NCBI GenBank assembly: GCA_029856125.1
Contig: JAHQWJ010000144.1
Coordinates: 1-14,141, forward strand
Origin: Promethearchaeia archaeon
Lineage (GTDB): Archaea > Asgardarchaeota > Lokiarchaeia > Sigyniarchaeales > SOKP01
Length of the DNA stretch: 14,141 bases
Reading direction: 5' to 3'
Made by a program: the position numbers and the translations under genes. Within the stretch, counting starts at the first letter, position 1. Each line of letters starts with the position of its first letter. Below are positions 2,380 through 11,755 of the stretch, in pieces. Under the pieces are notes generated by a model, which searched no databases, was not told where the DNA came from, and saw only the letters and a list, made by a program, of their open reading frames with translations.

Positions 2380-2469
2380 TGCCCTAAAATACCACTTTTA
2401 CCATAAAATTTTTAATCTACTTAATATTTTTTAAATGTATCATATAATATTAAAATTCTTGGTGTAATA

Positions 2470-2892
2470 ATTATTAGCATATATCTCGTTGAACCAGAGA
2501 AGCTTATTAAAACTTTAGCAGAAAAATTAAGAGAATTCCCCGAAATCAACCCACCCGAGGGATCCGAATTTTGGAAGACAGCATTTTTTAAGGAATTAGC
2601 TCCTATCGATCATGAGAATTTCTGGTATATTAGGTGTGCCTCACTTTTAAGAAAGATTAAGAAATTTGGTCCGATTGGGGTAAATAAACTCAGAAAATCC
2701 TACGGAGGAAAAAATAAAAAAGGTCCCGGTCGACACCATAGTGCTAAAGGGAGCGGAAAGATCATACGAGTCGCATTGCAACAGTTAGAGAAAGCTAATC
2801 TAATAATGAAGCAAGAAAGGGATGGTAAAATAACTACACCAGAAGGAACTAGCCTTCTAGAAAGAACCGCCTATGGGATTTTAAGAAAGTAA
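2470..2892 (+). CDS. rps19e: 30S ribosomal protein S19e (eS19); probable non-canonical ATT start (2470 or 2473)
   Basis: Manual translation (I)ISIYLVEPEKLIKTLAEKLREFPEINPPEGSEFWKTAFFKELAPIDHENFWYIRCASLLRKI...GPIGVNKLRKSYGG...KGSGKIIRVALQQLEKA...TPEGTSLLERTAYGILRK*. It has the eS19 WYxRxAS, YGG and IRxALQQLE motifs and the canonical position before PDCD5. Absent from the ORF track. Confidence 0.95.
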   Translation: MISIYLVEPEKLIKTLAEKLREFPEINPPEGSEFWKTAFFKELAPIDHENFWYIRCASLLRKIKKFGPIGVNKLRKSYGGKNKKGPGRHHSAKGSGKIIRVALQQLEKANLIMKQERDGKITTPEGTSLLERTAYGILRK

Positions 2893-2924
2893 TTTTAACA
2901 AACAACACTTCTTGGAGTTTAACT

Positions 2925-3263
2925 TTGAGCGACGAAGAAGAATTAGAAGCTATTAGGAGAAGGAAATTAGAACAAATGCAGCAACAAGCAATTCAACAAC
3001 AAGCAGCACAACAACAGCAACAACAGTTTAACAATCAAAAATACCAAATAATGCGAAAAATATTAAGCCAAGAAGGTCGTCAGCGATTAGAAAACATAAG
3101 AATAGTCAAACCGCAATTTGCTGAACAGATTGAATTACAATTAATACAATTATTCCAATCTGGAAAATTACGTGGAGCTACACCGTTACCCGATAAAGAG
3201 TTCAAAAAAATATTGGAAAAAATTACAGCAGGTAGTAAAAAAGAATTTAATATTAAAAAATAA
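2925..3263 (+). CDS. PDCD5/TFAR19-family dsDNA-binding protein
   Basis: ELEAIRRRKL, Gln-rich linker, ILSQEGRQRLENIRIVKPQFAEQIELQLIQL; TTG start after GGAG; canonical position between rps19e and rpl39e. Confidence 0.95.
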   Translation: MSDEEELEAIRRRKLEQMQQQAIQQQAAQQQQQQFNNQKYQIMRKILSQEGRQRLENIRIVKPQFAEQIELQLIQLFQSGKLRGATPLPDKEFKKILEKITAGSKKEFNIKK

Positions 3264-3281
3264 ACTCTGAGATTAAAAAAA

Positions 3282-3443
3282 ATGGCACGCAATAAAGATT
3301 TACCCTCAAAATTACGAAGAGCTAAGAGTATGAAACAAAGTCGTTCAGTTCCAAACTGGGTTGTCCGGAGAACCGGAGGAAAAGTTAGATCAAGTCCTCA
3401 TTCTAGAAGAGAATGGCGAAATACTAGGTTAAAGAGAGATTAA
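3282..3443 (+). CDS. rpl39e: 50S ribosomal protein L39e (eL39)
   Basis: Manual translation, 53 aa: MARNKDLPSKLRRAKSMKQSRSVPNWVVRRTGGKVRSSPHSRREWRNTRLKRD (KQxRxVPxWV and RRxWR motifs). Below the ORF-track size cutoff. Confidence 0.96.
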   Translation: MARNKDLPSKLRRAKSMKQSRSVPNWVVRRTGGKVRSSPHSRREWRNTRLKRD

Positions 3444-3445
3444 GC

Positions 3446-3895
3446 ATGGCAAAAAAGAAATCAAAAGAAATCAGTTTAGACGATTTAGAAGAAGAATTAG
3501 CTGATGAAGAAGAAGAGGAAATTGAAGAAATCGATGAATTCGGTTTAGAGGACATATCTGAAGGAGAGGAAGTTAGCGAAGTTTTTGAAGAGGAACTTGA
3601 GGATTTAGAAGAACTAGAAGAAGAAAAACCCCCCGAAGAAGAAATTATAGACGAAAGAATATATACAATTCCATTAGCTAAAGCACGGAATGGTCCAAGG
3701 AATAAACGGGCTAAAAAAGCAATTAGATATCTTAGAGAATTTATGGAAAGACATTTTAAACCAGAATCTTTAGTCATTTCGCAAGAAGTTAACGAGAAGA
3801 TCTGGTCAAGAGGAATCCAAAAACCTCCAAGAAAAATCAAAATTAGAGCCACGAAGAACATTGATGGTCTAGTAGTCTGCTATCTGGCAGAATAA
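3446..3895 (+). CDS. rpl31e: 50S ribosomal protein L31e (eL31) with long acidic N-terminal extension
   Basis: ERIYTIPL...RAKKAIRYLREF...VNEKIWSRGIQKPPRKIKIR core at residues ~70-149; follows rpl39e by 2 nt. Confidence 0.96.
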   Translation: MAKKKSKEISLDDLEEELADEEEEEIEEIDEFGLEDISEGEEVSEVFEEELEDLEELEEEKPPEEEIIDERIYTIPLAKARNGPRNKRAKKAIRYLREFMERHFKPESLVISQEVNEKIWSRGIQKPPRKIKIRATKNIDGLVVCYLAE

Positions 3896-9220: not shown

Positions 9221-9277
9221 AAAAACGATTACCAAACTAACAGTTAAATTTTTTAAATATTTATTTTTAATCTATTT

Positions 9278-9529
9278 GTGTCAAATAATTATCCTAAATA
9301 TGAAAAATATGCAAAGTACGAAAAGGGGAAGAAACTATCCCTTTGGGAACGAATTGGTATGTTCTTTCAAAATTCGAGAAGAATTATCAAAATTGCTAAT
9401 AAACCGGGAAGGAAAGATTATTTTTTAGTTTTTAAGATATGCGCTATTGGAATATTGGTGTTAGGAGTATTATCCTACGTGATTCAGCTTATTTGGACTC
9501 TAATAAATTTCGTTTTAGGAATTCGTTAG
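9278..9529 (+). CDS. secE: Protein translocase subunit SecE/Sec61 gamma
   Basis: RRIIKIANKPGRKDY followed by one C-terminal TM helix (ICAIGILVLGVLSYVIQLI); follows ftsY. Confidence 0.93.
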   Translation: MSNNYPKYEKYAKYEKGKKLSLWERIGMFFQNSRRIIKIANKPGRKDYFLVFKICAIGILVLGVLSYVIQLIWTLINFVLGIR

Positions 9530-9588
9530 AGTTTTTAAATTAAACTTCTTTTCATCTTTAATTAAAATAGATTTTATTGTTGAGTTTT

Positions 9589-10008
9589 ATGAAAGTAACA
9601 TTAACCTATAATAGAGATCTTCATTTCAAAGCTTCTGTAAGACATTTTGATGATTTTAATGTTGACGAGCCCGAATCTTTTCATGGAACAAATTTAGGGC
9701 CAAGCGCGGTAGAATATTTATTAGTCGGTATTGGAGGTTGTTTAGGAACGACATTTATCTATTGCCTTCAAAAAGGGAACATAGAATTAAATGAATGTAG
9801 AGTGTTAATTGATGGTACTTTATCTCATATCGGTCCTAAGAATCGTTTAAAATTAGTTAATGTGGATGTTGAGATGAAATTTTCTGCAAAGGAAACTACT
9901 TCAAAAGAGAGAATTAATAAATGTATAAAAGATTTTAGAGAAAATTGTATAGTAACAAGCTCAATAGCAGAAGGATTACCAATTAAAGTAACTTGCACCC
10001 AGATTTAA
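9589..10008 (+). CDS. OsmC/Ohr/YhfA-family protein
   Basis: DEPESFHGTNLGPSAVEYLLVGIGGC and the second Cys in ENCIVTSSI. ATG 9589 has TTTAATTA about 25-32 nt upstream. Confidence 0.9.
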   Translation: MKVTLTYNRDLHFKASVRHFDDFNVDEPESFHGTNLGPSAVEYLLVGIGGCLGTTFIYCLQKGNIELNECRVLIDGTLSHIGPKNRLKLVNVDVEMKFSAKETTSKERINKCIKDFRENCIVTSSIAEGLPIKVTCTQI

Positions 10009-10064
10009 CACTAAGTAATTAAATTATTAATAATAGAAAAAAAGTAGTAAAAAACTTTTTAGGC

Positions 10065-11246
10065 TCAAAAGAAATAAACTACGACCTGATCAGGTACTCG
10101 TAATTTTTCCTCTTTGTTCTTACATGCGATAAATTTTATTTTCATACTTACTATTAGTGAGATCAATCGTTTAGTGAGAATTCCGTCTATTATAAGAAAT
10201 TGTGTGGATTTAAACTCTTTCATTTTCTCAAAAACTTCTCCTACTGGGAGTTCAAATAGTTTCTCCATACTCTTATTAAATCCAATGCTATATCCTGGTT
10301 CTATTTTCTCAAGGCTATCGGTTATTGCTTTCATATTTTTCACTTTTAACTTCTTAAGCAATTTCTGCAACAGATCACCTTTTCCAGCAGGTTCTTTTTT
10401 CTCTTTGTAATTAGATGTATGTTTATCCCTTGGCGGTTTCTTGTTCTGTAGAGCCTTAACCATTTGTTTACGCGTAAGTTCCTCGACTTCTAAGCCTTCA
10501 GGTGCCCTAGCTACGAAATCAATTTTTGCTAATTGCATCAATTCATTCAAAATAATACTTCCTCCTCTATCACCGTCTAGAAAAGCTATCACGGAACTTT
10601 TTGTTTTTATTAATTTTATAATAGATTTCGGTACTTGTGTGCCCTGGGTTGCAACAGTGTTTTTAACTCCTATTCGTAATAGGTTTAATACATCTGCTCG
10701 ACCTTCAACAATTAATAATTCTTTGCTAGAATCAACATTGGGACCTGCGGGTAAGTTTTCTGGACCCCAAGATGTAATTTCTCCAAGTTTAATACCTGCG
10801 TCGACTTTTTCTTCTATTTCGCTCGGTTCTAAAGTATTCTGATCCCAATTTTTTAATAATTCTGCAGCACGCTCAATAATTTGTTTACGTTTAGATTCTC
10901 TAACATCTCGAATATCTAATAATTCAATTTCAGCTTCACAAGGACCTACACGAGAGACAGTCTCTACAGTCGCCGCCAACAGAGCAGTTTCTTTACGAGT
11001 TAGGCTAGAGGGGATTTTAATGACTCCTTCGGATATTCCTTCCTTAGATTCATTATCAACCTCAATTCTCCCAATACGTCCGGATTTTTGAAGATCCCTT
11101 AAGTCTAAGTCTAAGAGCAGGCCTTCAGTTTGGCCAAAAACTGCTCCCACTATATCTGATTGCGCAACGACACCTTTAATTCTAAACTTTGCTTCGATAA
11201 CATATTTAGTAGTAAAATCTACATTATTACTGGTAATTTTTATCAC
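10065..11246 (-). CDS. dnaG: Archaeal DnaG-like TOPRIM protein (exosome-associated); true start may be ATT at 11237
   Basis: KYVIEA..GVV..SDIVGAVFGQTEGLL..DLRDLQKSGRIGRIEV; TOPRIM motifs IVEGRADVLNL and FLDGDRGG; ARAPEGLEVEEL. Confidence 0.97.
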   Translation of the reverse strand: MIKITSNNVDFTTKYVIEAKFRIKGVVAQSDIVGAVFGQTEGLLLDLDLRDLQKSGRIGRIEVDNESKEGISEGVIKIPSSLTRKETALLAATVETVSRVGPCEAEIELLDIRDVRESKRKQIIERAAELLKNWDQNTLEPSEIEEKVDAGIKLGEITSWGPENLPAGPNVDSSKELLIVEGRADVLNLLRIGVKNTVATQGTQVPKSIIKLIKTKSSVIAFLDGDRGGSIILNELMQLAKIDFVARAPEGLEVEELTRKQMVKALQNKKPPRDKHTSNYKEKKEPAGKGDLLQKLLKKLKVKNMKAITDSLEKIEPGYSIGFNKSMEKLFELPVGEVFEKMKEFKSTQFLIIDGILTKRLISLIVSMKIKFIACKNKEEKLRVPDQVVVYFF

Positions 11247-11755
11247 TCCACTTTTCTATTTAATATTTGATTTTATCAAAGAATTAAAAAATTAATTATA
11301 AACTTATAAAAAGAAGTAAAATCAAACTAATAGATACTGCCTAATGTTAAAACTTTAATTCTAACTAAGATCTTGAATACTTTATCTTCTAAGATAGTTT
11401 TTTTTATCTTTATTAAGCTTGAATTTTGAATCCTTCAGTATATCGTTATAAGTTTGGATAATAATTTTAATTTAATTATTTGATTGAATTTTTTTTTTGA
11501 TTGATATATTTTATTAATTTGTTTAATTGATGATAAATTTTGAAAAATTTGCTAATTCGATTAAAATTTTAATGTATTAATATGAATGGTAAGTTTAATT
11601 TGTAAATAATCAAATTTTTGTTGATTACTATTCAATAAAAATGATTTATTAAATTTATCTTTTGTCAATTTAAGATTAAATGAGAATTGATTTTCATAGT
11701 TATGTTATCTCCATAAAATGCGCTTTTTTATTTTGCGATTATAATTTTAATTGTA

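Follow-up and report, generated by a model that had tools for sequence, protein, structure and literature searches.

The stretch of DNA analysed here (the window, 14,141 nucleotides) comes from a member of the Lokiarchaeia and carries three genes, rps19e, a gene for a BRCT protein and dnaG, whose predicted start codons are ATT or ATA behind a Shine–Dalgarno (SD) sequence. The source genome (G000) is a metagenome-assembled genome of 3.69 Mb with 32.7% GC and 6% contamination, and ATT, ATC and ATA are referred to together as ATH (AUH in mRNA). The 3′ tail of its 16S rRNA reads GGATCACCTCCT, an ordinary anti-SD, so that SD sequences should be of the GGAGG or GGTGA type and the motifs of the window are true SD-type words. 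Seven pairs of a motif and a start codon had been listed in a first-pass annotation of the window, and all seven were found at the positions and spacings that it gave. Orthologs were compared within the genus and in other genomes, among them Lokiarchaeum ossiferum (G055), Promethearchaeum syntrophicum (G050) and H. repetitus (G044) of the same order; the counts made after the genome-wide test described below were read from alignments by eye, and the orthologs are related by descent.

The rps19e gene, encoding ribosomal protein eS19 (139 residues), occupies positions 2473–2892 of the forward strand when started at ATT 2473, which lies 7 nucleotides after the SD-like word GGTGT (2461–2465, forward strand; four pairs with the 16S tail). 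The S19e hidden Markov model (HMM) aligned from residue 2 of the protein begun at this codon, and the codon stands in the ATG column of the orthologs. From position 2425 the frame holds no ATG, GTG or TTG before TTG 2776, a start at which would leave just 38 residues. In 30 genus copies the start column was ATT in 14 and ATG in 16, and GGTGT was present 6–7 nucleotides 5′ of the start in all 14 ATT copies, while GGTG occurred in none of the 16 ATG copies. The one-base variation in spacing between GGTGT and the start indicates that the upstream DNA is non-coding. The in-frame codons ATA 2467 and ATT 2470 were discarded as starts, conservation being confined to the 2473 column. An assembly error or decay of the gene is hardly credible as the source of this arrangement: the contamination of the source genome would speak for it, but the DNA of the rps19e region is letter-identical in an independent assembly, the same letters recur in 13 other genus genomes and in complete genomes, and eS19 is single-copy and intact in the source genome.

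In a second family, the eS19 genes of G044, G047, G050 and G055 have an ATT 6 nucleotides after an SD-like word, and a TAA lies in frame two codons 5′ of it, so that the predicted ATT start is forced by the letters in all four, two of which, P. syntrophicum and L. ossiferum, are cultured species; the start is ATG, GTG or TTG in G042, G045, G051 and G060. The eS19 leaders of family f2 (L147:8230-8250, L148, L149 and L160) also hold an out-of-frame open reading frame (ORF) of an ATG, two codons and TAA that overlaps the SD and the ATT start. It could be that the ATH start is reached by termination and reinitiation from such a tiny upstream ORF instead of by direct SD-led initiation, especially as a three-codon out-of-frame ATG ORF ends on the eS19 ATT in G044, G047, G050 and G055, and a 10-codon ATG ORF in the window ends at 2467. 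However, the 14 genus copies of rps19e with ATT do not share the upstream ORF, and none is conserved at the BRCT gene or at the idsA and aIF1 genes described below, which leaves reinitiation improbable. Three of the ATG copies of rps19e (L009, L010 and L016) are near the ATT group in sequence and lack the SD, and the ATG of L009 lies, as counted in L009, 5 nucleotides closer to a conserved TTTTTAAAT box; it looks as though a near-leaderless AUG start had taken the place of the SD and ATT in these three.

The second gene encodes a stand-alone BRCT protein of 78 residues (4035–4271, forward strand) and is preceded by the SD AGGTGAT (4023–4029, forward strand; seven pairs), of which AGGTGA at 4023–4028 ends 6 nucleotides before ATA 4035. 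The TGA within this SD is an in-frame stop two codons 5′ of the ATA, and among orthologs the SD frequently carries an in-frame stop. The start column of 26 orthologs was ATA in 13, ATT in three, ATC in two, ATG in seven and TTG in one; GGTGA was present in 15 of the 18 ATH copies, as against GGTG in two of the seven ATG copies. The gene was found in 28 of the 36 genus genomes searched, twice in adjacent copies in G005; it is located after the eS19-eL31 operon, and its product resembles the C-terminal domain of NAD-dependent ligases. Gene callers begin it at TTG 4050, giving 73 residues. This codon was rejected as not conserved, since many orthologs have TTA in its place, and the codons of the five conserved residues before it differ by synonymous changes. 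ATA 4035 is thus a well-supported prediction for the start of the BRCT gene.

The third gene, dnaG, lies on the reverse strand (10065–11237; 390 residues), with a probable start at ATT 11237 indicated by orthologs and the HMM. The ATT follows by 5 nucleotides the SD GGAGTGA (11243–11249, reverse strand), which contains the in-frame GTG 11246 chosen by annotators (393 residues). It could be that the annotated codons are real for both dnaG and the BRCT gene, leaving rps19e alone in need of an ATT; the callers do choose GTG 11246 and TTG 4050, and a GTG lies in frame 9 nucleotides 5′ of the ATT in most dnaG orthologs. Against this, TTG 4050 fails as described, and GTG 11246 lies inside the SD. 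The start column was ATT or ATA in all 29 genus orthologs, in two of which the GTG is unusable, a TAG cutting it off in L047 and its frame being different in L051, and G059 has an ATG in the ATT column, 5 nucleotides after GGTGA. An account in which both annotated starts are correct is therefore unlikely, and dnaG probably begins at ATT 11237, although this start is not forced in the source genome. Of the two annotated starts on which the first-pass annotation had made its reading depend, TTG 4050 was thus rejected and GTG 11246 could still serve in the source genome. About 13 genus relatives (L049–L061) were also seen to carry in dnaG an insertion of 30–45 nucleotides just after the GAxFGQ codons, with conserved flanks and an in-frame stop; it is missing in the clade of the source genome, and L045 and L050 also carry stops inside the match. 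The insertion looks like a small archaeal mRNA intron, and folding gave no significant structure in windows that were imprecise, one of them misplaced.

Four further genes of the window start at ATG or TTG. The rpl18a gene (eL20; 7582–7815, forward strand) has AGTGT 6 nucleotides 5′ of its ATG, and the ATG was unchanged in 15 copies while the SD-like word drifted; pfdA (7844–8260, forward strand) has GTTGA 5 nucleotides 5′ of an ATG that was present in all 14 copies reaching the start, whereas its SD-like word was degenerate among them. For ftsY (8318–9220, forward strand) the ATG is preceded by AGTGA at 8 nucleotides or GTGAT at 7 nucleotides, with five pairs. The proposal that ATG genes have weaker SD-like words thus failed for ftsY; likewise, of the proposal that the best SD sequences point at codons other than ATG, what stood was the BRCT gene, whose SD is the best, as ftsY with its ATG outdoes rps19e (five pairs vs four). 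The gene for a PDCD5-like DNA-binding protein (2925–3263, forward strand; called as 112 residues) starts at TTG, 6 nucleotides after the end of GGAGT at 2914–2918, and its start column in 30 orthologs was TTG in 25 and ATG in five. This TTG had been listed among the SD-guided non-AUG starts, a view that was dropped: TTG is an ordinary archaeal start, the GGAG of PDCD5 is not conserved, and the gene stays outside the ATH set.

The source genome was next examined as a whole by a frame-aware test on 3248 genes of a hexamer model, in which in-frame codons near gene starts were counted by their distance from the exact word GGTGA. After this word ATG peaked at 4–10 nucleotides (104 counts), TTG at 5–8 (29) and GTG at 5–8 (13). 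ATH peaked at 5–6 nucleotides only, with 41 counts where ~ 17 were expected from the other spacings in the same frames and ~ 10 from non-start codons, and the AT-rich control codons AAT, TTA, AAA, TTT and TAT had no peak. The Poisson probability of the ATH excess is ~ 1e-6, computed by hand with spacings picked after inspection. ATH thus accounts for roughly a sixth of the starts behind exact GGTGA, or ~ 24 genes, and the genome-wide excess of ATH starts, the lack of which had been named as fatal to the first-pass reading, is there at the DNA level. Since just one of the five conserved ATH genes that were not chosen by exact GGTGA has that word, the total is probably several times larger; as a rough inference and not a measurement, 2–4% of genes would have an ATH start. 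In the same genome-wide count the words GGAGG and GAGGT gave no clear ATH peak.

Further genes were picked by motif. Of 65 matches to AGGTGAT-N4,5-ATH in the genome, 19 were taken unselected by list position. Three of them stood at the beginning of a long open frame, where a stop lay no more than four codons 5′ and the 19 codons that followed held no ATG, and the other 16 were background. Two motif-picked genes were compared with their orthologs, and both ATH codons fell on the ortholog ATG column. For an idsA-like prenyltransferase the column was ATH in 14 copies, ATG in seven and TTG in one, with AGGTGA present in 11 of the 14 ATH copies and in none of the seven ATG copies. For an MBL hydrolase it was ATA in nine copies and ATG in G061 and G033; within this set (L247–L257), G009 was observed to have TTA in the start column behind an intact AGGTGG. 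A match in a PAS-domain gene (L220) was ambiguous, with an in-frame GTG 9 nucleotides upstream.

Two genes of the translation apparatus behaved similarly. The predicted start of the gene for the initiation factor aIF1 is ATT in all 19 genus copies, and in the source genome a stop lies in frame three codons 5′ of the ATT; in genomes beyond the genus the start is ATA, TTG, GTG or ATG. A second, divergent aIF1 paralog was seen in four genus genomes (L094, L100, L101 and L102), with ATT behind GAGGTGA. The eS26 gene starts at ATT in the source genome, in G017 and in L. ossiferum, where the predicted ATT start is forced, and at ATG in P. syntrophicum and H. repetitus; its SD is weaker, like that of aIF1. 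A homologous N terminus with no canonical start was therefore found for rps19e, aIF1 and eS26, and for the BRCT gene in many orthologs, and the start column switched between ATH and ATG in rps19e, the BRCT gene, eS26, the idsA-like prenyltransferase and the MBL hydrolase. ATH starts occurred in two of the 26 ribosomal proteins examined; uL3, uL4, uS10, aIF1A and aIF2-beta start at ATG in the source genome, and uS10, tried as an ATH-started gene, was rejected, having TTG or ATG in four others.

No obvious lesion of the initiation machinery was found in aIF1 or the initiator tRNA. The genes for aIF1, aIF1A and aIF2-beta are present, and the initiator tRNA has the canonical features (A1:U72, three G:C pairs, CAU anticodon). 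When compared with the M. jannaschii structure, aIF1 retains the zinc knuckle, the basic loop and the CAxGG and ELQG motifs; order-wide, it has W for Y/F in the basic loop, has lost an EG pair and mostly reads CASGG, and in the source genome the ELQG motif carries E in place of D. An altered aIF1, aIF2 or initiator tRNA had been suggested as the cause, of which aIF1 and the tRNA gave no obvious sign. Nor was the pattern of mitochondria-like loss of fidelity machinery found, given the presence of aIF1 with intact motifs and the unaltered initiator tRNA, and widespread use of AUH in genes that lack an SD was not seen, as the genes of a spc-type operon all have ATG and the ATH peak is tied to the SD. 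The codons could in principle be rescued by editing of the mRNA to AUG, or read by an Ile-tRNA or a modified initiator anticodon, but ATT, ATC and ATA interchange at one column and the initiator tRNA sequence is ordinary (a modification being invisible in DNA), which makes such routes very improbable.

The favoured interpretation of these data is that a minority of Lokiarchaeia genes, tens to ~ 100 per genome, start at AUU, AUA or AUC by near-cognate initiation positioned by the SD; judged from sequence, we would give this a probability of roughly 85%. The pattern at the DNA level is an ATH in the ortholog ATG column, usually 5–7 nucleotides after a GGUGA-type SD and often with an in-frame stop just 5′. 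Several observations weigh against it. The SD of aIF1 is weak and 9 nucleotides from the start; all 19 genes of the spc-type operon have ATG in place (uS14 being identified by position only); most dnaG orthologs have the in-frame GTG, and three have an ATG one codon 5′. The covariation counts come from related genomes, represent few independent events and so overstate the number of independent switches. Most strong SD motifs precede ATG (104 vs 41 for ATH after exact GGTGA), the raw count of AGGTGAT-N4,5-ATH was 65 vs 63 for the reversed control, so that the signal needs reading-frame context, and the genome-wide test covers exact words, our own gene model and one genome.

Some of these points, together with the ATG starts of uS10, aIF1A and aIF2-beta and the intact aIF1 motifs and initiator tRNA, would also suit an ordinary background, that is, a handful of conserved AUH genes as in many bacteria, a window enriched by chance and no relaxation at the level of the lineage; the frame-aware test, moreover, covers this Lokiarchaeia genome alone. 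Set against that are ~ 24 excess genes from one exact 5-mer, seven homology-supported genes in the source genome and two of 26 ribosomal proteins, where start-site profiling of S. aureus gave four sites (PMC13009471), and an ordinary background is rather unlikely. The relaxed initiation code of the first-pass annotation is retained as far as it concerns AUH codons behind an SD that annotation misses, given the ATH excess and the non-conserved TTG 4050; the word systematic was an overstatement, as ATH starts are a minority, most SD-led genes have ATG and TTG is canonical.

It is established that the start codon is brought into the P site through SD pairing and that aIF1 destabilises poorly paired initiator tRNA (PMC6412873). 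For SD-positioned initiation at AUH, pairing with the 16S tail would hold the codon in the P site, ordinary initiator Met-tRNA would read it with a third-position mismatch, and aIF1 and aIF2 would let such initiation pass at reduced efficiency; AUG would still serve where the SD is weak or loosely spaced, whereas AUH would require a narrow optimum. In S. aureus, AUU and AUA starts behind extended SDs were measured to give ~ 10% of AUG output (PMC13009471). As aIF1 is the proofreading factor and itself starts at AUU, it might, as a weaker inference, exert negative feedback on start-codon stringency, as does bacterial infC. A circuit in which AUU-started aIF1 governs its own level, and a conserved set of AUH genes including those of eS19, eS26 and DnaG is tuned by the same control, is a tentative and rather doubtful extension, within which the W for Y/F, lost EG pair and CASGG of aIF1 would lower stringency. 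If true, the circuit would represent an archaeal precursor of the eIF1-type feedback and the near-cognate initiation of eukaryotes.

Three observations lie outside this argument. A small hydrophobic ORF without a Pfam match (11717–11941; 61 residues in public assemblies) sits in a long AT-rich stretch that separates dnaG from the gene for an ArsA-type ATPase. Contig C84 of the source genome (L174:6343-11236) holds three copies of tRNA-Leu(TAG), close to which lie two membrane-protein genes that are almost identical, an arrangement that suggests repeated integration or duplication. A record titled Candidatus Nanopelagicaceae bacterium (L128) has an eIF6 86% identical to that of the source archaeon and probably represents a Lokiarchaeia bin that was mislabelled or mixed.

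Genes that begin at ATH would be skipped or shortened by standard gene finders. The rps19e gene was left uncalled in four public metagenome assemblies of the source organism, and a protein search brought up no near-identical eS19 of P. syntrophicum with the query used, the best match being 92%, which does not show that it is absent. NCBI translation table 11 admits ATT, ATC and ATA as alternative initiators. In practice these are applied unevenly, gene by gene: the annotated eS19 of H. repetitus has its full length (143 residues), but that of L. ossiferum does not, with 114 residues in GenBank and a start at codon 6 in RefSeq. Core proteins are thereby missing from Asgard gene catalogues or truncated in them, with consequences for claims that a gene is present or absent, and for phylogenomic markers, in the closest relatives of eukaryotes. 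A few percent of SD-led genes may be concealed by wrongly called starts, though SD-led genes are still a minority here; SD sequences are described as rare in Lokiarchaea (PMC12993045).

The closest known systems are the bacterial SD-assisted AUU and AUA starts of E. coli infC and pcnB and of S. aureus infC, cvfC1, ccpN and citZ (PMC13009471). The sequence features of infC/pcnB/ccpN-type AUH initiation are in place in the predicted Lokiarchaeia starts: a near-cognate AUH behind a strong and well-spaced SD, conservation across species and a fidelity-factor gene that uses AUH. The differences are the archaeal factors aIF1 and aIF2, the tens of genes instead of about four, the inclusion of eS19 and eS26, and the frequent switching between ATH and ATG among close genomes. 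Mitochondrial-type loss of fidelity is not what is seen here. In the Asgard archaea, atubA of the Kariarchaeaceae has an ATT start with a plausible ribosome-binding site, inferred by homology and called ‘rare’ (PMC13394414); it too is truncated in the database protein, but it is a single Heimdallarchaeia gene put forward with no genome-wide claim. In the literature searched, which covered few subscription papers, no genome-wide report of Asgard ATH starts was found beyond this case. What is new are the predicted starts forced at ATT in L. ossiferum for eS19 and eS26 and in P. syntrophicum for eS19, and with these starts in cultured strains the claim is directly testable. With canonical archaeal initiation the system shares the anti-SD tail, the initiator tRNA, aIF1, aIF1A and aIF2-beta, and the TTG of PDCD5 belongs there; reviews of archaeal initiation list only AUG, GUG and UUG (PMC7531240), and the present comparison suggests that start-codon selection in this Asgard lineage is looser than they describe.

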